Source of the DNA: Pseudomonadota bacterium
GTDB lineage: Bacteria; UBA10199; 2-02-FULL-44-16; JBDRGF01
Length of the DNA: 13,083 nt
Direction of reading: 5' to 3'
Assembly: GCA_043818055.1 (NCBI GenBank)
Contig: JBDRGF010000059.1
Location: forward strand, 1 to 13,083
In this document: one piece after another, positions 1 to 13,083 of the stretch
Numbering within the stretch: the first letter of the stretch is position 1
Layout of the letters: each line of letters opens with the position of its first letter
Program-made: the position numbers and the translations under genes
The notes under the pieces: model-generated
What the model was told of the DNA's origin: nothing
Seen by the model: only the letters and a program-made list of their open reading frames with translations
Database searches by the model: none

Positions 1-1964
1 TTATATTCGCGCGTCAGCTTGTCACGAGCCTCTTTGATGACCTGGCCTTTTTCATTGTAGGCAAATGTGCTGACATCATCGCCGCTCTTTTTCGATACAA
101 CCAAACCTTTGGCGTTGATATCCAACTCAACTTTTCTCAAACTATCACCGCCGACCCTTACCTCAGAGGCGAGTTGATTATACGCCGCATATGTATAGAG
201 GGTCTCTAAACGCTCCTTTGCCTTCCCCTTTTCAACCACCCTTAAGAGATTGTTCTGTTTGAGTCTGTCGGTATTTACCGTATCATACACATACTCGGTG
301 GCGATCCCCTCAGGTGAAGTTCTCATCGTCATCAGAGCATCTTTATTATAATGATATCGATATCCGTCGCCTTTTAGCCTCAATCCGAAACGATTGTGTT
401 CGTAGATATTTTGGACTCCAAGGCGGTTGGTCACTTTTGTTATCGAGGCGACATCGTTTATGCCATTCTTCCCCTTTACGATTTCATAAGCGACCTTCAT
501 TACGGGTGCCGACTCCGATCCGAAACGCTGCGCTATGACGCGATCCTTGTCCACACCTTCGCTTCCGTAATCGTTTTTCAGATAGACCTGCCCCTTCGGA
601 TCCATGATCATCGCGAGATTGTGATTCAGACTCGCATCGACAAATCCACCTGTATAATTATATCGGGTAACTCTCCCCTGTTCGTATTTCTGTGTCGTCG
701 GGGTGCGAACTGTTTCGAGATCTCCATTTGAATTATGCGTGTATTTCACCACACGGCCAAATGGGTCTCTCAGCGAACTGACCCAGCCCTCTTCGTAGCT
801 CAAGGTATATAATCTGCCGAGGGTATCATAGATGTGTTTGAGAACTTTTTTCTCGTTCATCACTACATATTCGAACTTCATCGTGTTGGAAAAGCGGTCA
901 TTGATGCTTACGAGATTTCCGTTGAGGTCAAAATATTTTTTTAGTCCTTCGCCGTCAGTTATCGTATAACCTTTTTCTGTCTTTTCCAGTTTTGCGAAAA
1001 GTTGATAAGGTGCTGCGTACTTCCCACCCTCCTGCTGCTTGAATGGATAGAGCTGGCCATCTTCATTTTTGAAAAGGACCATCGCCCCGTTATCTTTTAC
1101 GTATAATTGTTGATTGTAATTGTATGTCCAGTTATAGCCCATCGAAGATGCACGTTCCCACTGATTGCGATATACGCGTTTGAATTCAAAATCAAGCCCG
1201 ACCGATTTCACCAGAAGATCGGTGGCTTCCACTTTAAACTCGCCGCTATAGAGGATGACAGGATCCAAGGAGGAGCTGCCATCGGCATAAGTATATTCAT
1301 AAGTGGCACCATAAGCTTCGGCCCCTTCGACGAGGCACATCATGTCGGAGGGGGAATACATATTGCTCGAATTCATATCTCTAATGAGAAAAGAATTAGA
1401 ATCACTTATCGTTGAATTATTAGCATCTGTAAGAGCGACGAGATCATCGATAGCAATGCTGCCGTCGGCATTTTTCAACAACCCATCTGCAAAAGCCAGA
1501 TCACCCTGTGCCTTCTCGAGGGCTTTTATAAATTCTTCAGGATTTTCTATATTTGCAGCTTCAAGCTCTTTTATCAAAGCATCAAGCTTCGCTGGATCGA
1601 TAACGCCCTCATCAATCGAAATATCTCCAAGTGTATCCATTGCTTCAGCTGCGTTGGCATCGACCATGAAGGTATCGCGACCAGAGCTTACCGCCCATCT
1701 GGCCACGCCCGCGCACTGATTGCCTTTATCCCGCTCTATGCGGGCCATAGAATAGTTTTTCATCTCGGCATATATAATTGCCAGCGAATAATGGCGACCA
1801 GCTGCACTCATCTGGATAGCCGCATAAGTGCTGGCAGGCACTTTGACAAACCCGTCACCTGCGCCGGTTGAAGCATTGCCGACTGAAAGGAGATAAAAGA
1901 ATGAGAGCAATACTAGAACTACGGAAACAAATACTGATGGAAGTAAAAAACGATTACGCCTCAT
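1..1964 (-). CDS. Secreted RHS/YD-repeat protein with DUF6531 domain (partial, C-terminus beyond the left edge; >654 aa)
   Basis: Not in the ORF track because it has no stop in the window. ATG at 1964 follows a strong SD (AGGAGGTGA, 1968-1976). Hand translation gives a signal peptide (MRRNRFLLPSVFVSVVLVLLSFFYLLSVGNA) and a DUF6531-type motif from ~1265 (DPVILYSGEFKVEATDLLVKSVGLDFEFKRVYRN...MGYNWTYNY). YD-type repeats follow (YFDLNGNLVSINDRFSN, IYDTLGR, LRDPFGRVVKYTHNSNGDL, FAYNEKGQVIKE). The frame is open to position 3. Confidence 0.92.
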   Translation of the reverse strand, partial: MRRNRFLLPSVFVSVVLVLLSFFYLLSVGNASTGAGDGFVKVPASTYAAIQMSAAGRHYSLAIIYAEMKNYSMARIERDKGNQCAGVARWAVSSGRDTFMVDANAAEAMDTLGDISIDEGVIDPAKLDALIKELEAANIENPEEFIKALEKAQGDLAFADGLLKNADGSIAIDDLVALTDANNSTISDSNSFLIRDMNSSNMYSPSDMMCLVEGAEAYGATYEYTYADGSSSLDPVILYSGEFKVEATDLLVKSVGLDFEFKRVYRNQWERASSMGYNWTYNYNQQLYVKDNGAMVLFKNEDGQLYPFKQQEGGKYAAPYQLFAKLEKTEKGYTITDGEGLKKYFDLNGNLVSINDRFSNTMKFEYVVMNEKKVLKHIYDTLGRLYTLSYEEGWVSSLRDPFGRVVKYTHNSNGDLETVRTPTTQKYEQGRVTRYNYTGGFVDASLNHNLAMIMDPKGQVYLKNDYGSEGVDKDRVIAQRFGSESAPVMKVAYEIVKGKNGINDVASITKVTNRLGVQNIYEHNRFGLRLKGDGYRYHYNKDALMTMRTSPEGIATEYVYDTVNTDRLKQNNLLRVVEKGKAKERLETLYTYAAYNQLASEVRVGGDSLRKVELDINAKGLVVSKKSGDDVSTFAYNEKGQVIKEARDKLTREY

Positions 1965-2045
1965 GGGTCACCTCCTGGCCTTGTAAAACATGAATATAAA
2001 AAATTCCACTGCATTATAATACATGCGCTACAATCAGCTATGATT

Positions 2046-4115
2046 CTATTCAGCAGTTCCATAATCAACTATCACATAATTACTTGCTTTTTTCGCAGTC
2101 ATGGTACGTGTAGAAACAGCTCTATCCCAAGGCACAGCTCCTATGGGATTGCTCCAGTTGCTAGCCCAGTTCGATTCTGCAACTTTAATATTCAGAGGTT
2201 TGCCATCATCATCATATTCTACATCGACAATTATCATCGCATGATTTGACAAATCATACAAACCCATACCCGGCTTCACATCATCAATATCTACGCTATT
2301 ACTACCAGTATTTTGATAATTAATTTTATTTCCGCCTGAACTCGTTGCAACATGCATTGCCCATTCAAGACATTGTTTCCTTACACCAAGATATTGCAAC
2401 GTTTCATCGTCGCTTCCTGGTAAATCAACATTACCACCTTCATAAGTTGAAATAATTTTATCAACCAGTGATGTCTTCTGATTAACCCCGTATGAAGATC
2501 CAGCGAACTTATTTTTCATTTCAACTTTGATTTCATCAGAGATAGCTTCTTCCGGGTGTTCCTTGCGCCAGTTGTCAAATGCTTCAATAGCATTTCTCAT
2601 CTTTTGACCGTCACCACCTGCTACATCAGTAAGCCAACAGGATCCACCAGTACAAATCTCCGATTGTCCTGCACCCTGTTCCACGAAGTCATTTGCCAAA
2701 TCAACAATATCCTTTTTAACACCGGCAGTAGGAAGATTATAACCGGTAGAACTGCTCCACCCCTTTGTCACTTCTGTTTCTTCACTCTCTCCAGCTCCAA
2801 GATCAGCAATATCCGAAGTCAGGGAATTTTCAGTGTTTGAATCGTCGTCTCCAGTTCCGTTTTCAGAAAACTTAGCTGAGGCGTATGCTTTGGCACCTGC
2901 AAACTGATTCTCCGCACTCTCCCCCTGAGGTGAGTCGCTCTTTGCGGCAAGAAACTGATCGAGGTATGTTTTCGCGTTCTTTACAGCATTGATCATCCCT
3001 TCAGGATTATGAAATGTCACGCTTGTGGCAAAATCGAAGGCTATCCTCAAAAGGCTGAGCTGATGATCGCTAAATTCCGTTGCACCTTTACCTCCGGCCA
3101 TACCTGAACCGGAAGCGATATCAATCATAAATGCCCTATTCTTCTCCGTAGCCACCCACTGAGCGACCTTCAGACATTGAACCCCTCTTTCAAACTCAAC
3201 ACTGCTCATCGTCCTTGCCGCCTTCGCAAAATGTTCCAGTGCCGCTTTAACTTGTCTTTGAGCATATGTGGAAGCATCTTCCTGTCTGGTAGGATCTGCA
3301 TTGATATCTCCACCACCAGATACCTCACCATCCTGATTCGATTCTTCAGAGTTGGCTTCTGTTAACTTATCGATAGGTACGCCCAACAGCCACGAAAGAC
3401 CACCCTCCAAAGCATCACTAACACCTTGCTTTGCGAGGTTTTCTGCAAACTTGGTGCGCCACACCTTGGATGTTGGATTCACCCATTTTTTCAAGCGACC
3501 ATCAACTACCTTGCCTAAACCCGAAAGACTATCCAAAGGGAGAAATTCTATACCTAAATCTTTTCCCGCATTTAAAAAATCCCTGGCAGCTATTCTCAAC
3601 TCCTCCTCATTGCTTCCGTTTGTAAGATAGATAAGCCCTTCGCTCAATGTTTTGGCGCCCTCAAATGCCGTCTTCACGCCCTCTCCACCCTTTTGGAGAC
3701 CTTCGCCAAGAACAATAGCCTGAGGAATTGGAATTGAGCCTATCGCCTCTCCAGAATACGTTAAGCCATTGCTTACAACAGGAACAAAGACTTCCTCAAC
3801 ACCTTCGACATATGATTCCGCTATTATTCGATTTGCCTTGCCTGAATAGACCACCTCTGCAAGAGACCACCATTTGTTTTTCCCTTCATCGTGCACCTTG
3901 CGCTCAAAATCCATCTCCGCTTCCCAATCGTTTCCATAAATCTCTTTGCACGTCGCTTCGCCGTACCGAACACATGCCGACGCAACATCGCTCCGATAGA
4001 CAATGCCTGCGCTTGCAGAAGCAGTAGCCCCGACAAATTCGTCGTTGGCTTTTGCTACGTTCAGCATATTGAGAAGAAGTATAAAAACAAAACTGATGAA
4101 AGAAATAATTCTCAT
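2046..4115 (-). CDS. Secreted multidomain protein with C-terminal CHAP-like (Cys/His) amidase/peptidase domain
   Basis: 690-aa ORF in the track. ATG at 4115 lies 7 nt after SD AAAGGGGG (GTG at 4118 is the alternative start). Sec signal MRIISFISFVFILLLNMLNVAKA. The C-terminus has QCLEWA...KPG...NHAMIIVDV...IKVAESNW, matching the CHAP Cys/His/Glu pattern. Acidic S/G/E/D-rich linkers separate the domains. Confidence 0.8.
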   Translation of the reverse strand: MRIISFISFVFILLLNMLNVAKANDEFVGATASASAGIVYRSDVASACVRYGEATCKEIYGNDWEAEMDFERKVHDEGKNKWWSLAEVVYSGKANRIIAESYVEGVEEVFVPVVSNGLTYSGEAIGSIPIPQAIVLGEGLQKGGEGVKTAFEGAKTLSEGLIYLTNGSNEEELRIAARDFLNAGKDLGIEFLPLDSLSGLGKVVDGRLKKWVNPTSKVWRTKFAENLAKQGVSDALEGGLSWLLGVPIDKLTEANSEESNQDGEVSGGGDINADPTRQEDASTYAQRQVKAALEHFAKAARTMSSVEFERGVQCLKVAQWVATEKNRAFMIDIASGSGMAGGKGATEFSDHQLSLLRIAFDFATSVTFHNPEGMINAVKNAKTYLDQFLAAKSDSPQGESAENQFAGAKAYASAKFSENGTGDDDSNTENSLTSDIADLGAGESEETEVTKGWSSSTGYNLPTAGVKKDIVDLANDFVEQGAGQSEICTGGSCWLTDVAGGDGQKMRNAIEAFDNWRKEHPEEAISDEIKVEMKNKFAGSSYGVNQKTSLVDKIISTYEGGNVDLPGSDDETLQYLGVRKQCLEWAMHVATSSGGNKINYQNTGSNSVDIDDVKPGMGLYDLSNHAMIIVDVEYDDDGKPLNIKVAESNWASNWSNPIGAVPWDRAVSTRTMTAKKASNYVIVDYGTAE

Positions 4116-4288
4116 CACGTTACCCCCTTTGGATAAAGGTTCATAAATAAAAAAATCCCACAGGCCTGCTGTGAGATTTTTTGTTCGTGTTTATTTGAAT
4201 ACCAAATTGTAGTGGCGCACAACTGGAAGTCGAATCTTAGATATAAACAATGTGGAATCGATGAAGGGCTGTGACGTCTCTCTCCCAT
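4115..4288 (-). CDS. Possible 57-aa leader ORF (uORF)
   Basis: ATG at 4288 after AAGGGGGT, the same SD-like string used by the downstream gene. Open for 57 codons (MGERRHSPSSIPHCLYLRFDFQLCATTIWYSNKHEQKISQQACGIFLFMNLYPKGVT) through the terminator. The TGA overlaps the downstream start (GTGATG). SD spacing is short and the ORF may be chance. Confidence 0.25.
   Translation of the reverse strand: MGERRHSPSSIPHCLYLRFDFQLCATTIWYSNKHEQKISQQACGIFLFMNLYPKGVT
4149..4182 (-). terminator. Intrinsic terminator hairpin
   Basis: Minus strand reads AAAAAATCTCACAG-CAGGC-CTGTGGGATTTTTTT: a stem with one U-G pair followed by a 7-U tract. The A-run on the other side could make it bidirectional. Confidence 0.75.
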
Positions 4289-4397: not shown

Positions 4398-4577
4398 TTA
4401 CTTACTCACCCGTCCCGGACTGGTGATGCGGCTCGACATATTTTTAAAAAAGGTGGTAAAAGCATCCTGCATCCTGGGCCCACCGAACAAGACGCCGATC
4501 GCAAGCGCAAGGACAGAGACAACCAGGAGATACTCCACAGCAGTTTGCCCCTTTTGCGATTTTAAATGTTTAAACAT
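4398..4577 (-). CDS. flp: Flp-family (Tad) pilin
   Basis: Likely start ATG 4577 (59 aa). Class III signal with KSQKG|QTAVEY (G-x4-EY Flp motif), then a hydrophobic helix and a short tail. It lies at the end of a tad operon. Confidence 0.88.
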   Translation of the reverse strand: MFKHLKSQKGQTAVEYLLVVSVLALAIGVLFGGPRMQDAFTTFFKNMSSRITSPGRVSK

Positions 4578-4945
4578 ATTTTCTCTCGAGCTGAGATATT
4601 GTTTTTGCGACAAAAGCCGGCTTCAACTTCCAGTATATAATCGACATCCTTTCCCGCAGAATATTTTTTGAGACAATAGGGAAAGATCACGCTCAAAAAA
4701 CAATTTTTAGGTCTAGCCACATCCTCTTCGACCTTCACCACCTCATCATCGCGGATCCAGAGGATGTCTATCGCAAAGCGCATTCCCCACATCCAGATCT
4801 TCGGATTGGATCTCTTTGGAAGAGCGATGAGCAAGCCTCTGCCATCACAATCCTTTCTGAACGCCAATCCCAAAACCCTTTGCAAAAAAGTCAGCGCTGT
4901 TTCAATGGGAAGGGTCAATCTGTCCTGAAATTTTATCTCTTTCAC
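4562..4945 (-). CDS. DUF192 family protein
   Basis: Motifs ALTFLQRVLGLAFR, GLL, IWMWGMRFAIDILWI and YILEVEAG are typical of DUF192. GTG start overlaps the upstream TGA. Confidence 0.9.
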   Translation of the reverse strand: MKEIKFQDRLTLPIETALTFLQRVLGLAFRKDCDGRGLLIALPKRSNPKIWMWGMRFAIDILWIRDDEVVKVEEDVARPKNCFLSVIFPYCLKKYSAGKDVDYILEVEAGFCRKNNISAREKICLNI

Positions 4946-6480
4946 ATCCCTGATTCCAGTTTCGCTACGAGCTTTTTAAGCTCCTCTGCCTTTGTGTCAC
5001 CCTTTGATGCGTACTTCAAATATTCTTTAAAATTCCTGACCGCGCTCGAAGCATCCTGCTTTTCTACAAGATACATCTTTCCAAGCGCATAATAGACCTG
5101 CGGCAAATTCTTCTTAAGTTCGATCGCCTTATTATAAAGATCCACCTTCTTATCGACATCGAAAACGTGTTCAGCCCATTCCAGATATAGCCTGATCTTG
5201 TTATCTCTGCTCAAGTTTGGGATATCTGAGAGCTTTTGATATACCTGATCCGCTTTTACATAAGCATCATCGACCTTGGACTTGCTGTAAAATCTCGCCT
5301 TGGTGAAGAGGAGGTTGACGTCGTCGGGATTGATCTTCTCAGCCCTCTTGAAATATTCGAGCGACTCCTTTTCATGTCCGAGCTCGACCGCGTTGGATGC
5401 CTGAAGTGCAAGCACCATCGGATTTGCATTCTTCTCGCCGGCAAGCAACTCTGAGCTCCCCTGATAATCGCCACTGCGGTTCAGGAGATTCGCCTTCGTA
5501 TATTTAGACAAGAACGATGGATAAGCCTTCATCCCCCTGTCAGCGAAGCTAAGCGCAGTTTCAGTATTTTTATCCATGATCCATCGGCTGAAGAGCCAAT
5601 ATGGAACATTGGCGTTGCTTTTGATGAGCCCCTCCATCAATTTCTCGACCTGAGCAAGATCATTGTTCAGATATGCCCTGTGAATATTTATAAGGACAAG
5701 AAGGATTGAATTTCCCTCCGGCTTGAGCTTTTCGGTGACGACATCAAGGTCTCCCAAAACGAGACTTGCTGCTTTGGGTTTCGCAGAATACAAGCCATCG
5801 GTCATGATCAGCCCCACATAATCCCTTATCAACGCTTCATCGAGCAGATCGGCATCTATCTTCCCATTGAGATTTTTAAACTCAGCTTCCAGGCCCGAGC
5901 TATCAAAGGGGAAGGCAGCCCATCTTGCAAGATAGTCGGATGCATCCTGTTTATATTCCTTATTCTCCGGCCAACCGACGCTGTCAAAAAAATCCGAACA
6001 CCATTTCAAAAGTGGAACGCGTTTTTTCTGTTCGATCCGCTGACGCTGACATTCGAGCACATATACAAATCCCTGCCTGACCTGTGCTTCGGCAAAGCCT
6101 TCGATCGGCAAAAAATGATCGGAGAAGGAATATGAGAGATAATGTTTTTCCTTATCATTTGCCGGAACTGGATAGACCTTCTCATAGCGTCTGCCTAAGC
6201 TTTCCTCAACAGAGAGCTTCCAGTCCTTTTTGACGGAATTCCTCGCATCGATCCTCCTGATCAAAAATCTGGGATTGAAGAATTCATCCTTCTCCGGCTT
6301 CTCCACATTCATCGAAAAGATCAGCTCATCTCCCTGATTTTGCCCTACCTTCCATCCAGATACAGGAACTCTCACTGTGAGAAAATCGGGCAACAGCACA
6401 ACGGGCTTCGCATCGGCCAGCGCAGATGCTGAAAACAAAAACATACTCGCAATTGCAAAAAATTTCATAGTCTTCTTCAT
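4942..6480 (-). CDS. Secreted TPR-repeat protein
   Basis: Likely start ATG 6480 (SD GAGG upstream; the track starts at 6501). Signal peptide KKTMKFFAIASMFLFSASALA. C-terminal TPRs (YFKRAEKINPDD, YNKAIELKKNLPQVYYALGKMY, AVRNFKEYLKYA). N-terminal alpha/beta domain unassigned. Confidence 0.8.
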   Translation of the reverse strand: MKKTMKFFAIASMFLFSASALADAKPVVLLPDFLTVRVPVSGWKVGQNQGDELIFSMNVEKPEKDEFFNPRFLIRRIDARNSVKKDWKLSVEESLGRRYEKVYPVPANDKEKHYLSYSFSDHFLPIEGFAEAQVRQGFVYVLECQRQRIEQKKRVPLLKWCSDFFDSVGWPENKEYKQDASDYLARWAAFPFDSSGLEAEFKNLNGKIDADLLDEALIRDYVGLIMTDGLYSAKPKAASLVLGDLDVVTEKLKPEGNSILLVLINIHRAYLNNDLAQVEKLMEGLIKSNANVPYWLFSRWIMDKNTETALSFADRGMKAYPSFLSKYTKANLLNRSGDYQGSSELLAGEKNANPMVLALQASNAVELGHEKESLEYFKRAEKINPDDVNLLFTKARFYSKSKVDDAYVKADQVYQKLSDIPNLSRDNKIRLYLEWAEHVFDVDKKVDLYNKAIELKKNLPQVYYALGKMYLVEKQDASSAVRNFKEYLKYASKGDTKAEELKKLVAKLESGM

Positions 6481-6482
6481 AA

Positions 6483-7862
6483 TCACCTCTGACATGGACA
6501 TCGGCTCATGGCATCCTCGGCAAGACGGTAGTAATCGACCTTCTCGCTCACAGCCAGCCGTTTGATATTGTTAAGTTTCGTCTCAGCGAAACAGCATCCT
6601 TCAAGCTCCTGAAGCGTGAGAGCCTCTTCGTATAGAGGTTTTAGCCTCTCATTTAAATTCATCACTATTTTCTCTTCCAATCCAGATGTATCGAACTCGC
6701 TTAAAATATCGTGGATGGAGCTCAACTCTTCGAGCGACTTGCGGAAAAAAGATGAGGATGCCTCTACTCCGTTTGATGTCCGGCCCTTCTGATAGAGGCC
6801 TGTTGCAGTTGAATAGAGGGTGTTCGACTTCTCCTGCACCTGAGCTTTTACGACCTTATAGATATCCATAAGATCGATTTCAAAATCAGGATGCATGCCA
6901 TATTTATTGAGCAGTTCCACAGCTTCGTTCAACTCCCTGTATGATTCGATTATCTTCGATTCCTCCATGAGCCTTTTCCCTGTCTTAAACTTATCTTCAG
7001 CGAGCACCAAATCCCTTGCCTTCTCCTCCTCCGTAGCCTGATCTGTTTTGGCTACCTCGCCGAGCTGCGCCGCTATCTTATTCTTCATTTCAAGGGTGGG
7101 AACATGATCAGGATTCTTGTCGAGTATCTGCTGCAGCTTAAACTGTGCGCCGCTGTAATCCTTTCGGGACATCATATCAGAAACCTCGGAGAGCACCTGC
7201 TGAATCCACAGGTCTTCGGCAAGACTCTCCTGACTCTCCCCCTTGTGACTCTCCATCATCTTTCTTGCCTTATCCTGAAGCGCTATTGCCGGAGCATTTT
7301 TCGGATCTATCTTTACTACCTTGGCCAGTATTCCCAAAGCTTTATCGTAGCGCTTCTGCTCCATCGCCTTCTCGGCTAATTTAAGCCGCATTTCAATCAA
7401 CTCTCTCAATTTACCCTCTTCATCAGCTGCCACATTTGCATCCAGTTTGACTACATCGGCTTTATTCACATCGCCCTTTCCTCCGAAAAACTGGAAGAGT
7501 ATGAAGATGATAAGAGCTAAGGAGAGACCTCCCAGCGCCAAAACTTTTGGAGAAAAATCGATTCGGGATCGTACGCTGTGAAAAATACCCGTAACTTTTG
7601 TCGACATTGTGGAGATCAATGTAAAATCCAGTTTCAGTTCATCCTTGTGATAGCCTTTCGCGATATCTATTTGAGTAGCCACACCATCAAAAACTACAAA
7701 GGGCGTGTTCTCATGAATTATCAGTATGAAATGTTTGTCGGATGTGGTTTTATTATAAGCCAGCAATCTGTCAGCGCCAAAGGCCACATAATAGACACCC
7801 TCCTCTGTTACATCCAGAGCATCCCTCTTACCTTTCCATTCATATGTGATTGTTAAATTCAT
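6483..7862 (-). CDS. Bitopic membrane protein with periplasmic TPR/helical repeats (Tad accessory)
   Basis: 459 aa. About 105 aa of beta-rich N-terminus, then a TM helix (VLALGGLSLALIIFILFQFF) and TPR-like units (YDKALGILAKVVKIDPKN, YSGAQFKLQQILDKNPDH). ATGA overlap with the upstream gene. Confidence 0.75.
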   Translation of the reverse strand: MNLTITYEWKGKRDALDVTEEGVYYVAFGADRLLAYNKTTSDKHFILIIHENTPFVVFDGVATQIDIAKGYHKDELKLDFTLISTMSTKVTGIFHSVRSRIDFSPKVLALGGLSLALIIFILFQFFGGKGDVNKADVVKLDANVAADEEGKLRELIEMRLKLAEKAMEQKRYDKALGILAKVVKIDPKNAPAIALQDKARKMMESHKGESQESLAEDLWIQQVLSEVSDMMSRKDYSGAQFKLQQILDKNPDHVPTLEMKNKIAAQLGEVAKTDQATEEEKARDLVLAEDKFKTGKRLMEESKIIESYRELNEAVELLNKYGMHPDFEIDLMDIYKVVKAQVQEKSNTLYSTATGLYQKGRTSNGVEASSSFFRKSLEELSSIHDILSEFDTSGLEEKIVMNLNERLKPLYEEALTLQELEGCCFAETKLNNIKRLAVSEKVDYYRLAEDAMSRCPCQR

Positions 7863-8392
7863 TGTCTTAGTTTCTTTCTTGCCAAAGTTATTTTATCTAA
7901 AGTCTCTTTATAAATTTTACCATTCGAATCGCCGACGAGATTCAAAACCTTTTCCCAGTTTTTTATCGCCCGCTGATATCTTAGGTTTTTATAATCCATA
8001 TTTCCCAATGCGACCATCTCGTTCACTATCTGGTCTAAGTGCCCTTTGGCCTCTTCCTGCCTGCGCTTGCTTAAATAATTCGACTCGTTGAGATAGAGCG
8101 AAATTTCCCAGATTCGTATTGCATCATGAATGCGGTTTGAAAGATATCGCGCATACGCAATATCCTGAAGCGTCCTTGAAAGCGTTACGGAGGGAAGCGG
8201 ACGCTTGAATGAGGATACGCTCTTTTGCTCCTCCACGTTCATCTGCCATTGACTGACATTCTGAGATCCGCTCACCTTTTTAAATCCCTTCTCCTTTGGA
8301 GCCATCATCTCGGAGAGGATGAGCAGAGCAACAAATATAGAGACCATCGCGATGCCCGCAATCATAAATAGTTTTTTGCCACCCTTAGTCAT
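7859..8392 (-). CDS. Membrane-anchored TPR protein (Tad accessory)
   Basis: 177 aa with an N-terminal TM helix and two TPR-like units (DAIRIWEISLYLN, YQRAIKNWEKVLNL). Confidence 0.75.
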   Translation of the reverse strand: MTKGGKKLFMIAGIAMVSIFVALLILSEMMAPKEKGFKKVSGSQNVSQWQMNVEEQKSVSSFKRPLPSVTLSRTLQDIAYARYLSNRIHDAIRIWEISLYLNESNYLSKRRQEEAKGHLDQIVNEMVALGNMDYKNLRYQRAIKNWEKVLNLVGDSNGKIYKETLDKITLARKKLRQ

Positions 8393-8409
8393 AATTTAAA
8401 ACCCTTTCA

Positions 8410-9708
8410 CTATGATGCCGTGACCATATAATAGGGATGAGAATTCAATTTCAATGTTTGAGCGCGTAGCTTTGTACCATCCTTAAGATTTACTTCACGC
8501 GGTTCAGCCTTATTCTCCATAACAACGATCAAATCAAGTATATCCTTCATAAAGGGCGAATCGCCTAAACCTTCAAGGAGATGTCTACCACTCTCAACAC
8601 GTGCGCCAAGCTTCCCGTTTATGTTTCCCGATGTTGCGACGACTCGCTTCTGTGTATCGACTATTAAAAAATCGCCCATGTTCAGTTCTTTGAGCATCTC
8701 CCAAAAACCATCGTTCACCTTTCTGAGATCTGTTTGATTCGATTGGGGTGAATCGGGAAGAATAGGTTTAGAAGCGTTTATCTTATCGACGAGAAGCTCA
8801 AACTCCGCAAACTTCATCTTGCCGGAGAGATTCAACTTTCCGCTCTCATCGAAACTATGCAAGGCATAAGAGAGGGGAAAGATCGTCCATCGCCTGAGAA
8901 GATAATAGAGTCCCCAAACCATCAGCACAGAGATGATAAAAAGTTTGATTACTTCAACCACCTGGAAACCTGCTCTGTTTAAGCTCCCTCTCGCATCATA
9001 TTTGATGATGGCAAGTCCCTTTCTTATCTCAGTGATACCCTTAAAGGTCTCCTCTGAATTGAAAATCGGATATGTGAGATAATACTCTCCCCCTCCAATG
9101 TCAAAGGCCTTCAATTTATCTGCTGATGCTGAGAAGACCTTGTCCATCCGCGGACGACTCTGTATCTGCTGCCCAAATAGTTCAACAGGTGAGAGAATCA
9201 TCCCTTCATTATCAGTCACGAAGATCTCCTCAACACCGACCTCTCCTTTCGCAGAATCAACCGAGAAGAGCACCTCCTGATCCTGGCCAAACGCTTCCTG
9301 ATTCGAGGCTGCCAGGAGCCTCACAAGGGTCTTTCCGCGATCGAGCGATTCAGCCTCAAGCTGAGTTATATCCCGGAATAGAAGATGCACCGGCCCCAAT
9401 AAATACAATATGGAAATAGCGCCGATGAGTATAATTAGAATTTTTTTATTCCAGTCGATCGACTCAAAGCGATCGGCATATTGACGAATCGTCTTTAGAT
9501 CAAAACTTCTTTTTTCGCCTGAGCTCTCTGTACCCTTCTCCTTTGGGGATTTCAGGAGCTTATCGGTGAGAGGTTTTAGAAATGATATCTTCGACAACTT
9601 CAGCAACAACTTATTAAAATCAGGTGTCGGCAGCTTTGCCTTCAGATCAGAAATCACCTTCAGAGCTGATGCAAAATTATTCTGTTTATTCTTCGTCTCT
9701 TCACTCAT
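8410..9708 (-). CDS. Two-TM membrane protein with periplasmic Cache-like domain and cytoplasmic HAMP/PAS-like tail, no enzymatic output domain
   Basis: 432 aa. TM1 (ILIILIGAISILYLLGPV), a periplasmic region with VEEIFVTDNEGMILSP, TM2 (LFIISVLMVWGLYYLL) followed by IFPL, and a tail with FLIVDTQKRVVATS. ATGA overlap with tadC. Confidence 0.65.
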   Translation of the reverse strand: MSEETKNKQNNFASALKVISDLKAKLPTPDFNKLLLKLSKISFLKPLTDKLLKSPKEKGTESSGEKRSFDLKTIRQYADRFESIDWNKKILIILIGAISILYLLGPVHLLFRDITQLEAESLDRGKTLVRLLAASNQEAFGQDQEVLFSVDSAKGEVGVEEIFVTDNEGMILSPVELFGQQIQSRPRMDKVFSASADKLKAFDIGGGEYYLTYPIFNSEETFKGITEIRKGLAIIKYDARGSLNRAGFQVVEVIKLFIISVLMVWGLYYLLRRWTIFPLSYALHSFDESGKLNLSGKMKFAEFELLVDKINASKPILPDSPQSNQTDLRKVNDGFWEMLKELNMGDFLIVDTQKRVVATSGNINGKLGARVESGRHLLEGLGDSPFMKDILDLIVVMENKAEPREVNLKDGTKLRAQTLKLNSHPYYMVTAS

Positions 9709-10628
9709 AGCATCAAACCTTCCAGTCCACCCGTTAACAATTTAACGAGGATCGGTCCGAAGACCACGATAAAAACAGCCGGCATAATAAAGAAAACCAG
9801 CGGGAAGAGGAGCTTCTGCGAAGCGATCGCCCCTTTTCGTTCAGCTGATTCAAATCTCTCACGACGGAGCCTCTCCGCCTGGATTCTTAGCGCCTTTCCG
9901 ATCGAAGTACCAAGGCGATCCGCCTGTACAAGGACTGAAACGAATGTGGAAATTTCGGTCGAGCCGACTTTAAGAGACATGCTCTTTAGAGCCTGCGCCC
10001 TCGTCCGACCGAGTTGGATCTCCGATAACATGCGCGACACCTCTTCGCGAAGCGGCGATGGGCGCATCTTTTGGGCAATGCGATTGACCGCAGCTATGAA
10101 GTCGAGCCCTGCTTCCACGGTCAACGTGAGGTTGTCCACAAAGGGTGGAAATTCGAGGATGATTTGATTGCGCCTCTTCTGAATGATGGAATTGATCCAA
10201 AGACGTGGAAAATAAAAACCAAGTATCAGCATACCAAGTGAGAGCCACCACGGAACTGAATATTTGATATCCAAAAATCTCAACTCGAAAAATAGTATGT
10301 ATGTGAATGCCAGGAACATCACAGATGACAAGATCTGAAATGCCCAGAAGTCCTCAGGTGTAAAATGATCGAGAGCTGCGTAAGAAAATTTCTTATCGAG
10401 TTCAGCCCTCTGATGGGGAAGTTTAAGTGGGCTTAAGAGATGAGAATAGAGGGAAAAGATAGGACGAAACAATGAATCGACTGCAGTGAAATTGGCTGTC
10501 GATGAATCTCCCTGTTTTTTTAGGCGTTTGACAGCAAGGCGCTTTTCGTTATACCCGATGAAGAGATACGCTATCAGCGCAACGCTCACGAAAAGGGCAA
10601 TAATTGAAATTATAAACTGTATGTTCAT
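9705..10628 (-). CDS. tadC: Tad pilus platform protein TadC (T2SSF family)
   Basis: FPPFVDNLTLTVEAGLDF, EIQLGRTRAQAL, LVQADRLGTSIGKALRIQAERLRRER and KLLFPLVFFIMPAVFIVVFGP are canonical TadC motifs. Confidence 0.95.
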   Translation of the reverse strand: MNIQFIISIIALFVSVALIAYLFIGYNEKRLAVKRLKKQGDSSTANFTAVDSLFRPIFSLYSHLLSPLKLPHQRAELDKKFSYAALDHFTPEDFWAFQILSSVMFLAFTYILFFELRFLDIKYSVPWWLSLGMLILGFYFPRLWINSIIQKRRNQIILEFPPFVDNLTLTVEAGLDFIAAVNRIAQKMRPSPLREEVSRMLSEIQLGRTRAQALKSMSLKVGSTEISTFVSVLVQADRLGTSIGKALRIQAERLRRERFESAERKGAIASQKLLFPLVFFIMPAVFIVVFGPILVKLLTGGLEGLML

Positions 10629-11488
10629 AATGATAAGATTGCCTCCGCCTTATAAATTTCCTGAATGCGATCGTTGAGTTCCCGCTTCCCTGTCGAAATA
10701 AATTTCTGTCCCACTTCGATTATCATATTCATCGTATGAACTTCCGGTAGATGTTTTTTCAAATTGAAGGTCAGCGTTCCCTTCCCCGAAACCGATATCC
10801 TGTCGATATTCTTCGATCTCAAGAGCTGAATCCTTTGCAACATATCCGGATCCTCGGTGACCTCGGTGCTTTTGAGTTCAGACTGAACCGTGTAGCTGAT
10901 CTCGGCAACTTCTTCACCCGCAAGCGTGCGTATATTTTCAAGGCGACAATTCACCTTCAGATCCAAAAAGACGAGATCGCCGATTTTGGCGCTCTGAACA
11001 TTCGACCAGGCCTGGCCGACTTTGAGAGATGCCCTTGGAAAGACAATTGGAAATGACTCAAATGATAGTTTTGCGAGATCGATAGGCTGCTGGGAAAGCC
11101 CTGTGGAATCGAATTTTGTTTCGTTCACAAAGGTTTTATATTTATCGCGCGTCTCACCATCGCTCTCCTCCCTGATAACAGAGATCTTCTCCTCATTCTT
11201 GAGGTAGCGAAAACTTCCCTCTTCGAGATCCATATGAGATACGGAGGTCACCTTAATATCCTTTTTGACTTCGAGCTCCCTGAACGATTCCTTCTTCCTG
11301 AGTTCATCAGACGCTCCCCCCTCCTTGCTGATATTTTTGAGTGCTGTGTTGCTCTCGAGATAATGCGTATAGGCGGTTAGGCTCTTAGGATACTCGCCAT
11401 ACGAAATAATTACTTCCTTCTTCTCCTCTCCTGAAGCAAAGGAGAAAAGAGATGTGAATACAAAAATGACAATTAGAAAATATCTCAT
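10625..11488 (-). CDS. Secreted beta-rich protein, DUF6263-like
   Basis: Likely start ATG 11488 (AAAGGT 6 nt upstream, just after the tadB stop; the track start at 11572 lies inside tadB). Signal peptide MRYFLIVIFVFTSLFSFA. FPRASLKVGQAWS and ISVSGKGTLTFNLK resemble DUF6263-type motifs. Confidence 0.6.
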   Translation of the reverse strand: MRYFLIVIFVFTSLFSFASGEEKKEVIISYGEYPKSLTAYTHYLESNTALKNISKEGGASDELRKKESFRELEVKKDIKVTSVSHMDLEEGSFRYLKNEEKISVIREESDGETRDKYKTFVNETKFDSTGLSQQPIDLAKLSFESFPIVFPRASLKVGQAWSNVQSAKIGDLVFLDLKVNCRLENIRTLAGEEVAEISYTVQSELKSTEVTEDPDMLQRIQLLRSKNIDRISVSGKGTLTFNLKKHLPEVHTMNMIIEVGQKFISTGKRELNDRIQEIYKAEAILSL

Positions 11489-11490
11489 AA

Positions 11491-12348
11491 TCATACCTTT
11501 ATAGTGACAATCTTTTTCATCAGATACATACCTGTTGCCTGCATCAGCAACATGAAAGCTATCATCCCCCAACCGATCGGATGTGTGAGCATCGGCTCAA
11601 TGTATCCCGGGGATACTATATAAAGAGCAGCTGCCAGAACGAAGGGAAGCATACTGATGACTACAGCCTGTGCGATCCCCTGAGTCGTTATTGTTTTTAT
11701 TTTCCCGAGCACCCTCTGTTCCTCGCGAATCGTGTGCGTGATAATCTCGATAGTCTCGATGATATTTCCGCCAGTCTCCTTCAGCGTGATGAGAGAAGTG
11801 ACCAGCAATTCAACCTCTTCGACGGGAACCCTCTTTTGAAATTCAAGCAGGCACTGATCAAAGCTCTTTCCCAGCTGCTGTTCTGATACGATGCGGGAAA
11901 GCTCCTGCGATATGGGGGGTGGCATCTCCTCCGAGGCCATCTGAAAACCCTGTTGGAGGGAAAGCCCGGATCTCAAGGCATTTCCGATGAGTCCAAGAGA
12001 ATCGACAAGCTGGGACTTGATTTTAAGAATTCTACTCCTCTTCATGTGCAAAGCGAAGCGATAGGAGATGTCGTGCGTGAGAATGGAAAGTGTGAGGCCG
12101 ATCAAAAATTTGAGCCAGATGCTTTTGAAAATGAATATGGCGAAGGCAAATGAGATGATCGGGCCTATCACATAAAAGAATGTTTTCTTCCACGGTGTCA
12201 GCTCATACATCATATCCTTAAAGACGTTTTCACATCGCATCCGCGAGCGATCATAATAAGCTGTAAGGAGGCTTGCCACTTTCGGCATCCATAAGTATGC
12301 GATCAAAGTGACCATCGTTCCTGAAAATATTGCTATAAAATATTTCAT
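11491..12348 (-). CDS. tadB: Tad pilus platform protein TadB (T2SSF family)
   Basis: QLVDSLGLIGNALRSGLSL, EMPPPISQEL, ETGGNIIE, LYIVSPGYIEPM and MKKIVTIKV are canonical TadB motifs. SD AGAGGA precedes ATG 12348. Confidence 0.95.
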   Translation of the reverse strand: MKYFIAIFSGTMVTLIAYLWMPKVASLLTAYYDRSRMRCENVFKDMMYELTPWKKTFFYVIGPIISFAFAIFIFKSIWLKFLIGLTLSILTHDISYRFALHMKRSRILKIKSQLVDSLGLIGNALRSGLSLQQGFQMASEEMPPPISQELSRIVSEQQLGKSFDQCLLEFQKRVPVEEVELLVTSLITLKETGGNIIETIEIITHTIREEQRVLGKIKTITTQGIAQAVVISMLPFVLAAALYIVSPGYIEPMLTHPIGWGMIAFMLLMQATGMYLMKKIVTIKV

Positions 12349-12429
12349 CAAATTCCTCTGTCAATACAGTATAAGTGCTCGTAACAATTTAATATCTGGA
12401 TGCCTCTATTTTCCGTCTGTCATCCCTGC

Positions 12430-12572
12430 GTACGAGCCTGTTTCCGAAGTCATTTGTATATCAAATTATTGTAGGGGAGGGTTTCAAACCCTCCCGAAAT
12501 CACAATTAGGGCAGGTTTAAAACCTGCCCCTACATAAATATCAAAAAACGGACTTCGACAACAGCCTCCTAC
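12430..12572. mobile_element. Possible MITE-like element with 22-nt imperfect terminal inverted repeats enclosing the REP doublet
   Basis: Left GTACGAGCCTGTTTCCGAAGTC (12430-12451) versus reverse complement of right GTAGGAGGCTGTTGTCGAAGTC (12572-12551): 18/22 identical, placed nearly symmetrically (19 and 17 nt from the REPs). Confidence 0.5.
12471..12533. repeat. Inverted pair of GTAG-type REP sequences (REPIN-like doublet)
   Basis: GTAGGGGAGGGTTTCAAACCCTCCC (12471-12495) and, on the minus strand, GTAGGGGCAGGTTTTAAACCTGCCC (12533-12509). Each is a GTAG foot plus a palindrome, with a 13-nt spacer between them. Confidence 0.85.
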
Positions 12573-12633
12573 ACAAAGAACAAAACAAAGTATTTTTTAG
12601 AGCTCCCATCTATTTATATCCACCCAGCAGTAA

Positions 12634-13083
12634 TTAAATTCGCGATGTACCAATAAAAATCTCCCTCGAAAAATCTATTCCCTTCTGCTGCAACTCATCA
12701 AAGAACTTAGGCACGACACCCGAGGGTCGGAACTTGCCTACTACTTTTCTATCGGCGTCGACACCTTCCTGCTGATATGTAAATATGCTCTGCAGCGTGA
12801 TCACGCTCCCCTCCATGCCTGTGAGCTCCGCTATATCGGTAATCTTTCTGGTTCCATCGCTAAATCTGCTGAGCTGAACTATCATATGTATTCCGCCGGC
12901 GATCTGTTCACGGATCGCCTTCGAAGGAAGCTCGACGCCAGAGAACATCACAAGCGTCTCGATTCTCGAGATCGCATCTTTTGCGGTGTTTGCATGTACG
13001 GTCGTCATCGATCCATCGTGGCCAGTGTTCATCGCCTGAAGCATGTCGAGCGCCTCTCCGCCTCTACACTCTCCAACCACTAT
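12634..13083 (-). CDS. cpaF: Tad pilus assembly ATPase CpaF/TadA (3' part only)
   Basis: Walker B and His-box region VVGECRGGEALDMLQAMNTGHDGSMTTVHAN, plus IVQLSRFSDGTRKIT and GMEGSVITLQSIF. It lies upstream of tadB/tadC. Confidence 0.96.
   Translation of the reverse strand: MVVGECRGGEALDMLQAMNTGHDGSMTTVHANTAKDAISRIETLVMFSGVELPSKAIREQIAGGIHMIVQLSRFSDGTRKITDIAELTGMEGSVITLQSIFTYQQEGVDADRKVVGKFRPSGVVPKFFDELQQKGIDFSREIFIGTSRI

Follow-up and report, generated by a model that had tools for sequence, protein, structure and literature searches.

Among bacterial toxins, the N-terminal markers PAAR, MIX and FIX belong to type VI secretion systems (T6SS) and LXG/WXG to type VII systems (T7SS), and PAAR, MIX, FIX and LXG have made the effector sets of these two machines readable from sequence. 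To our knowledge, nothing comparable exists for Tad pili, the type IVc pili. Here we describe a domain (the module) shared by two adjacent proteins encoded behind a tad operon on a complete 13,083-base contig (the window; JBDRGF010000059.1 of assembly GCA_043818055.1, phylum UBA10199). One is an RHS protein that runs into the contig end, the other a 690-residue protein, P690. Among the 93 genomes of the phylum that were surveyed, the module occurs in exactly those that carry the same type of Tad machine, making it a testable candidate link between Tad and toxins or cell-wall hydrolases.

Myxococcus kills prey with Tad-like machines, and Bdellovibrio requires them for invasion; a recent report describes their toxic cargo as unidentified (PMC12075869). 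The Tad-like Kil apparatus of Myxococcus xanthus carries out contact-dependent killing, with toxic effectors likewise given as unidentified (PMC8460266, PMC12075869). The window has a Tad-type pilus in common with Kil, whereas studies of Kil direct attention to minor-pilin tips that vary and to a partner resembling the type III secretion system (PMC8460266, PMC12075869); ‘Rhs’ is not mentioned in the accessible part of the 2025 Kil paper (PMC12075869).

The Bdellovibrio hit locus (Bd0109/Bd0108) resembles the window and the tad loci of three other genomes (G051, G040 and G025) in having a YD/RHS gene at the edge of a Tad/Flp operon, and Bd0109 homologues accompany Tad pili elsewhere among bacteria too, according to that study (PMC3818213). 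The role proposed there is pilus regulation, whereas here full-size cages with toxin ends are encoded, two situations compared by description only; the module, moreover, occurs on peptidoglycan hydrolases as well. These loci, for which no systematic search for small partner open reading frames (ORFs) was made, showed no Bd0108-like gene.

A route for cargo through type IVb pili has been described for TcpF of the toxin-coregulated pilus (TCP) in Vibrio cholerae and CofJ of the enterotoxigenic Escherichia coli (ETEC) pilus CFA/III, which are exported by Sec and leave through the pilus (PMC9565799, PMC10120004, PMC6048534, PMC12075869), their N-terminal part docking on the tip minor pilin (PMC9565799, PMC10120004, PMC6048534), as these papers report. 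In both cases, as in the window, the genes lie in a pilus operon and the products start with a Sec-type signal, here read by eye. The signals of TcpF and CofJ are short, flexible stretches on colonisation factors of type IVb systems, whereas the window combines a 120-residue domain, predicted to be folded, with toxins or hydrolases and with Tad (type IVc).

The RHS proteins of our family share with Sec-dependent Rhs/WapA proteins and with T6SS Rhs effectors (PMC8636562) the DUF6531 domain, the DPVxxxxGE motif at the cage entrance and, in full-length relatives, DPLGL before the toxin end; unlike those proteins, they have no PAAR or VgrG-binding part, and their N-terminal region is a new helical domain. 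In the T6SS work, the preceding Asp of DPVxxxxGE is needed for N-terminal Rhs cleavage (D288N result; PMC8636562). Zhang et al. (2012) filed MafB-N and plain signal peptides as ‘T2SS’ (type II secretion system) and, in the portion available, mention neither ‘flp’ nor ‘pilus’ nor ‘pilin’ (PMC3482391); in the literature on polymorphic toxins and Rhs, ‘Tad pilus’ is not among the matches listed. Like the markers of polymorphic toxins, the module is constant while the part behind it varies, and its distribution follows a single secretion-type machine; unlike them, it lacks a Pfam match and stands behind a Sec-type signal, and the machine that it tracks is the Tad pilus.

A separable domain in two neighbouring proteins

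The first-pass annotation of this DNA, made by hand from the letters, had pointed to a module of about 110 residues common to the RHS protein and P690. The strings that it quoted are found in the translations where it had placed them: ASTYAAIQ starts at residue 44 of the RHS protein and ASTYAQRQ at residue 282 of P690 (nucleotide 3275), and the second blocks follow with NPEEF from RHS residue 141 and NPEGM from P690 residue 371. Whole-protein BLASTP aligned RHS residues 44–109 with P690 residues 282–340 (22/66 identities, one seven-residue gap, 41.2 bits, E 1e-7 as a single comparison). Smith-Waterman alignment of the two 140-residue stretches ran through both blocks with a score of 94, compared with 29.5 ± 5.1 and a maximum of 62 when one partner was shuffled (z 12.6; none of 2000 shuffles reached 94). 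The two copies are homologous. When the entire 2.93-Mb assembly was searched in six frames for the RHS copy, only that copy itself and the one in P690 (E 6.6e-5) came up.

Neither a Pfam nor an NCBIfam model covers either copy, consistent with the earlier statement that no family could be assigned. Even at E ≤ 10, Pfam gave only DUF1840 (0.0068), Fea1, TPR_8 and GidB for the two modules, all far below their cut-offs, and the known toxin N-terminal markers (PAAR, MIX, FIX, LXG, MafB-N and others in Pfam) did not match. Word-index protein searches with the module and with whole P690 returned the query itself only. An exhaustive search of 1.84 billion representative sequences with a seven-sequence profile (A2, E ≤ 1e-3) retrieved 68 proteins, two of them the window’s own; five were discounted as they matched at the coiled-coil end only, leaving 61 credible relatives. 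All ten family clusters that were looked up are unnamed metagenomic singletons. A locus search with alignment A3 gave five loci, all already among the genome-search matches, and metagenome scans with A5 and with the relative P0062 found no loci.

DUF6531/RHS follows the module in 47 of the 61 relatives (40 proteins by Pfam, 35 by a purpose-built DUF6531 profile). Three others carry different enzymes, namely NlpC/P60 in P0036 (E 2.4e-6), CHAP in P0062 (6.6e-10) and an M23-like domain in P0048 (3.9e-6, under the cut-off), while the rest of the 14 non-RHS relatives comprise two proteins of about 860 residues of no named family, along with fragments or proteins of unjudged completeness. The position of the module N-terminal to differing effector-like parts, first suggested by the two window proteins, therefore recurs across the family. 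Six-frame searches of the relatives’ genomes gave weak matches within ORFs of 2000–2200 residues, always to the same positions of the profile; the ORFs encode RHS proteins in which a helical stretch of about 530 residues precedes DUF6531. In a quick tree, in which the window RHS protein and P0064 sit on very long branches, non-RHS forms appear in both deep clades. The window RHS protein, P690, P0059, P0060, P0062 and P0064 form a Cys-bearing subclade (97 in the Shimodaira-Hasegawa-like approximate likelihood-ratio test, SH-aLRT), nested in a deep clade of 11 that includes both copies from G051.

A helical N-terminal region of 450–550 residues, with the module at its centre, is found in most relatives. 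The module itself starts at residue 250–340 in most proteins and at 130–230 in about a dozen, compared with residue 37 in the window RHS protein and 89 in P0064. BLAST links 59 of the halves ahead of the module into a single set, with the pair P690 and P0060 and the singular P0064 as exceptions; profile-profile comparison of the P690/P0060 half with the family half gave a probability under 1%. The module is thus the sole element common to four N-terminal layouts: behind a signal peptide, behind an 89-residue lead, behind the common helical N-half of about 260 residues, and behind the private N-half of P690 and P0060. By this pattern of sequence layouts, it is a separable and so far unnamed domain. 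The size of about 110 residues first given to it holds insofar as a discrete unit of about 120 residues is seen, and falls short for most relatives, in which that unit is embedded in the longer helical region.

On the 654-residue RHS fragment, Pfam identifies DUF6531 (PF20148) at residues 234–308 (E 4.2e-13) and no RHS_repeat at E ≤ 0.01. Residues 230–654 align with the 2000–2200-residue RHS proteins of relatives (E 1e-34 to 2e-53), which carry RHS_repeat at E 1e-66 to 4e-92, and from residue 40 onward the protein is colinear with one relative from its residue 270 (E 5e-46). Through this alignment, the window protein classifies as an Rhs/YD-repeat cage protein. Cleavage would be expected at its DPVILYSGE motif. 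The starts of both window proteins resemble signal peptides by eye, and both proteins are putatively exported by Sec.

Whole P690 has no Pfam or NCBIfam match, and its residues 470–690 match neither Pfam CHAP nor NLPC_P60 even at E ≤ 10. This stretch contains QC (582–583), NH (625–626) and ESNW (648–651), in the CHAP order of Cys, His and a polar third residue. The segment from His to ESNW resembles the Pfam-positive CHAP domain of P0062 in alignment A5 (local z 4.4, reached by 1/2000 shuffles), and the ESM Atlas leads from it to CHAP/NlpC clusters (feature score 0.92–0.94, template-modelling (TM) score 0.40–0.50, no confident structure). Since this modest similarity and the Atlas leads stand without a Pfam match, we regard the C-terminus of P690 as only probably CHAP-like. 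A match in the PDB to the designed repeat protein Tako8 was dismissed as spurious. P0060 (399 residues) is 33% identical to P690 residues 3–399 (E 3e-65). The possibility that the P690 N-half is a divergent form of the family N-half was rejected at the sensitivity of hhalign, which gave probabilities of 0.1–0.2% against three different profiles. Within the P690 module, QCL..VAT (window 3164–3190, P690 residues 314–326) resembles the helix of the C-terminal Cys (2340–2381, residues 582–596), probably by chance.

Distribution of the module and of Tad

The window’s phylum, which amounts to one class, was surveyed over 93 genomes. The module (A4 profile, E ≤ 1e-4) was found in 28 of them and the window-type TadC (E ≤ 1e-8) also in 28; the two sets are identical, and the other 65 genomes have neither. 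With A2 at E ≤ 1e-3 the count is 29/93, the additional genome giving a 23-bit match broken by stop codons. The two features also co-vary inside families of mixed content (present in 2/4 genomes of f4, 2/5 of f18 and 2/3 of f15), six of the negatives there being 81–97% complete, and both are missing from all four genomes of f2, a family of the window’s own order. DUF6531, used as a control, occurs in 31/93 genomes, of which seven lack both module and TadC (they include G010, G047, G055, G073, G076 and G092, with G047 and G073 belonging to mixed families), and DUF6531 is absent from three genomes that have both (G006, G012 and G070). It follows from this control that the N-terminal module tracks Tad and that RHS as such does not. 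As the module is found only where this Tad type occurs, it likely marks cargo or partners of the pilus machine. Most genomes have a single module gene, which speaks against hetero-oligomerisation of two module proteins, one of the roles first considered, as a general function.

Gene context of about 10 kb on each side was obtained for 24 further genomes (25 loci) and, together with the window, covers 25 of the 28 module genomes. In four genomes, each from a different family, the module gene has tad genes as neighbours: that of the window (G000), G051, G040 and G025. The tad locus of G051 is syntenic with the window gene for gene and has two flanking RHS genes. The RHS stop and the flp start overlap in G040, and about 1.4 kb separates the RHS gene from the tad genes that follow it in G025; in G033, module and tad genes are 16 kb apart. 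Both RHS genes of G051, on contig C92 (L069:4799-11155 and L070:6623-12973), encode proteins of about 2100 residues that carry the module and differ in their C-termini, and the start of the downstream one overlaps the end of a 188-residue gene whose product has a pilin-like N-terminus.

Predicted fold and conserved residues

AlphaFold2 was applied to RHS residues 31–232 with a 27-row alignment. Residues 36–157 form a block with a predicted local distance difference test (pLDDT) score mostly of 83–94, falling to 56–60 in mid-stretch, and consist of a strand, two long helices, a strand and three helices. About 75 residues with pLDDT under 50 come next, ahead of DUF6531, in agreement with the order of module, linker and effector-like part that had been read from the sequence. 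By this prediction, the module packs four helices and a small sheet of two strands into a compact unit, continued by a disordered linker. A model of the full N-terminal region has the same strand-helix-helix-strand core at 273–348, flanked by long helices (mean pLDDT 66); both models are of moderate confidence, their alignments being shallow (27 and 22 rows) and drawn from one phylum.

Foldseek found nothing in the PDB at E ≤ 1e-3 for either model, in line with the lack of an assigned family. The best VIA-align Z values, 9.7 for the module (four-helix sensor domains) and 9.9 for the N-half (dynamin-like stalks), are under the tool’s noise level for helical proteins. Sequence and profile searches of the PDB gave coiled-coil or apolipoprotein-type matches only, and the ESM Atlas no usable match for the module. 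Behind the module in the long form, positions 360–525 of profile A6 weakly match apolipophorin-III and apolipoproteins A-I and A-IV (E 0.004–0.03) and are modelled by AlphaFold2 as one very long helix; this segment may be amphipathic and membrane-active, or the matches may come from composition alone.

Conservation was counted over 63 aligned modules, in RHS numbering. His58 is invariant (63/63), closely followed by Ala55, Glu77 and Trp90 (61 each), Tyr47 (60) and Pro43 (57). Position 84 is Cys in six modules and Val in 52, so that Cys84 is not a family-wide catalytic residue. A conserved His and a conserved Cys had both been singled out from the two window copies, the Cys as possibly catalytic or disulfide-forming; the His proves to be universal, the Cys is rare, and the fold around them is predicted to be a plain helical bundle.

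Payloads

Most full-length RHS members have a DPxGL motif 150–290 residues before their end. The C-termini were listed for 39 long proteins, 38 of them rows of the family (P0067 is a non-member); a broader pattern, DPxG[L/I/V/M/F/W], falls near the C-terminus in most rows, is missing from two, and has its last match more than 800 residues from the end in about five. Many RHS members end in a domain of the form HGG...GC[IL]R, which Pfam identifies as YkuD (27.2 bits in G020 and 23.3 in G017, for a cut-off of 23.4). Such YkuD-like ends, of L,D-transpeptidase fold, stand after DPLGL in P0005–P0015, P0025 and P0029 and at L021:2113-2712 and L019:9274-9873; they are conserved across cluster representatives and not hypervariable. 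The C-terminus of the G040 protein contains a VWA7_N domain resembling phospholipase C (PLC-like; 30.1 bits), and another conserved C-terminal class, ending in ...YKG, has no family name.

Possible functions of the module

The reading that we favour, with confidence evenly balanced between acceptance and doubt, is that the module is a domain for addressing or docking, by which Sec-exported effectors are coupled to Tad. The effector would first be exported by Sec into the periplasm, where the module would dock it to a Tad component such as a pilin, a pseudopilin or the secretin, and the Tad machine would then display or release it, in much the way that type IVb pili serve TcpF and CofJ. Cutting at DPVxxxxGE would separate the N-terminal part of RHS forms from the cage, and the payloads (YkuD-like, CHAP, NlpC/P60, M23-like or PLC-like) would have another cell’s envelope as their target. 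A trafficking role, which the first-pass annotation had listed among its suggestions, would fit this scheme, in which the docking step, its partner and the target cell are our own suppositions. A bolder version makes the module the first recognisable class of Tad cargo, loading RHS-caged toxins and hydrolases for contact-dependent antibacterial attack; we put it forward tentatively, as possible though rather doubtful. If the module is a Tad address of this kind, then Tad systems of this phylum would, like T6SS and T7SS, be weapons against bacteria whose warheads can be exchanged, and looking for co-occurring N-terminal domains on toxin-like proteins could likewise reveal the effectors still missing for Tad machines of the Kil and Bdellovibrio types.

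Several observations weigh against a Tad address. Adjacency to tad genes is exceptional, being seen in only 4/25 genomes with context, while in the other 21 the module gene has no tad gene at its side; the commonest neighbour is instead a Ser/Thr kinase gene of about 570 codons (16/25 loci, full-length in 14). The tie to Tad loci that had been expected from the window is supported at the level of genomes, and extends to adjacency in four families, whereas most module genes adjoin the kinase gene and not tad. In G005, a near-complete genome in three contigs, the module gene and tad are on different contigs. Because genomes within a phylum are related by descent, few independent events underlie the perfect co-occurrence. 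Behind the RHS gene of G040 and of G020 there is no immunity-like gene. Members of family f4 that are poor in payload (in G012 and G006) suggest that the domain may have a role of its own; and, by our own estimate, the assembled RHS cage may be too large for the Tad secretin.

The strongest rival, which we consider unlikely on balance, holds that module proteins are not exported weapons but accessory or regulatory Tad parts in the periplasm or cell wall, controlling pilus extension or opening the producer’s own peptidoglycan, with the module as their contact to the pilus apparatus, as in the model for Bd0109. The co-occurrence and adjacency data apply here too, most payloads are peptidoglycan-directed (YkuD-like, CHAP, NlpC/P60, M23-like), and a genome usually has one module gene; the survival of an N-terminal region almost or entirely free of payload in G012 and G006, and the lack of an immunity-like gene in the two genomes just named for it, point the same way. 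So does Bd0109 itself, a YD/RHS protein encoded next to tad genes and reported to affect pilus extrusion (PMC3818213). Against this rival, the RHS members are full cages of 1800–2200 residues with both the DPVxxxxGE and the DPLGL signature and with exchangeable C-terminal domains of several classes, one of them PLC-like, which is the make-up of delivered toxins, and one G051 tad locus has two RHS genes with different C-termini. Were the rival true, the module would still explain the pairing of YD/RHS genes with Tad operons.

Two further alternatives seem to us less probable. The module could be a general domain for envelope anchoring or periplasmic holding, without a functional tie to Tad, its distribution being due to shared descent and joint loss. 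The 21/25 genomes without a tad gene beside the module gene, the unlinked arrangement in G005 and the far commoner kinase linkage would suit such a domain, as would predicted folds that are plain helical bundles without a specific match and the weak resemblance of the post-module region to amphipathic apolipoprotein helices (E 0.004). We nevertheless judge it improbable, given that module and TadC mark the same 28 genomes, also within three mixed families, that module-less RHS genes persist in Tad-less genomes, including G047 and G073 of those families, and that module genes have stop/start overlaps with flp or pilin-like genes in two unrelated families. An enzyme or autoprocessing domain using the His and Cys is very improbable. 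The invariant His58 and the near-universal Glu77 and Tyr47 would be compatible with it, and QCL..VAT of the P690 module is faintly like the catalytic-Cys helix of the CHAP-like domain in the same protein (z 3.3, reached by 7/1000 shuffles); but the RHS copy has no such similarity (z 1.4, 103/1000), and the idea of a degenerate CHAP catalytic helix was set aside, the likeness being treated as chance. The position of the Cys is mostly occupied by Val, the predicted bundle is not papain-like, and N-terminal cleavage of Rhs proteins is ascribed to DPVxxxxGE at the cage in the T6SS study (PMC8636562).

Whichever reading holds, alignments A2 and A4 provide a profile for finding further members, and the window supplies a defined pair of proteins.

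Features of the window and further observations

The window belongs to an assembly (contig C59 of 166; 94% completeness) and has every gene on the minus strand (Table 1). Pfam names a TadA fragment, two T2SSF platform proteins (TadB and TadC), three TPR proteins, a DUF192 protein and, weakly, the Flp pilin; downstream of flp come P690 and then the RHS gene. A scan of the window for the terminator consensus gave three sites, compared with 2.0 expected. One is a hairpin behind flp, as is usual after the gene of a highly expressed major pilin, so that the two effector genes may need read-through or a promoter of their own.

Table 1. Features of the window, with positions counted from its first base.
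Feature	Position	Strand	Basis
RHS gene, truncated by the contig end after 654 residues	3..1964	-	ORF list, translation
DUF6531 at the start of the RHS part	1041..1265	-	Pfam
DPVILYSGE, RHS residues 234-242, fitting the N-terminal Rhs autocleavage signature D-PVxxxxGE	1239..1265	-	sequence
Low-complexity linker between module and RHS part, residues 158-231	1272..1493	-	pLDDT under 50 in AlphaFold2 model
Module copy 1, RHS residues 36-157	1494..1859	-	BLASTP, shuffle test, A2 profile 127 bits
Signal-peptide-like N-terminus, RHS residues 1-31	1872..1964	-	read by eye: basic start, hydrophobic run, small residues
P690 gene: signal-like start, private N-half, module, linker, CHAP-like end	2046..4118	-	ORF list, translation
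Putative CHAP/NlpC-P60-like C-terminal domain, Cys583, His626, ESNW 648-651	2049..2711	-	residue order
Acidic Ser/Gly-rich linker, P690 residues 401-469	2712..2918	-	read from sequence
Module copy 2, P690 residues 271-400	2919..3308	-	BLASTP, shuffle test, A2 profile 138.9 bits
P690 N-half, residues 25-270, common only to P690 and P0060	3309..4046	-	BLAST single-linkage
Terminator-like hairpin, 14-bp stem and T run, between flp and P690	4150..4182	-	consensus scan
flp pilin gene, prepilin motif G/QTAVEY, 280 nucleotides upstream of P690	4398..4577	-	weak Pfam Flp_Fap, E 1.9e-4
Rest of tad operon: DUF192, three TPR, 432-residue protein, TadC, 315-residue protein, TadB, TadA fragment	4562..13083	-	Pfam

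The 432- and 315-residue proteins of the tad operon (8410–9708 and 10625–11572, minus strand) have no match in Pfam or NCBIfam; both have counterparts at the same positions in G051 (E 2e-37 and 1e-20). Elsewhere in the window’s genome there is at least one further large RHS-type ORF without the module (G000:C3:24670-37044), open over 4124 codons, which may be two genes, because its start resembles a membrane acyltransferase; a weaker DUF6531 match lies at G000:C62:17622-17825.

The Ser/Thr kinase gene is directly upstream of the module gene in G017, G020 and G019. It spans families f3, f4 and f6, with the C-terminal half of its product conserved too, and is found at L019:2006-3715 (G017) and also in L018, L021, L022, L051–L054, L056 and L057; further kinase-adjacent loci are L065–L068, L058 and L060. 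A motif scan of all fetched contexts detected no Flp-like genes near kinase-adjacent module genes, and the kinase orthologue in the window’s genome (G000:C101:28306-30051) is not followed by an RHS gene. Beside the kinase gene in family f4, the N-terminal region stands nearly alone in G012 (475 residues, L060:9497-10924) and has a short YD tail in G006 (700 residues, L058:8885-10987); both genomes still possess TadC.

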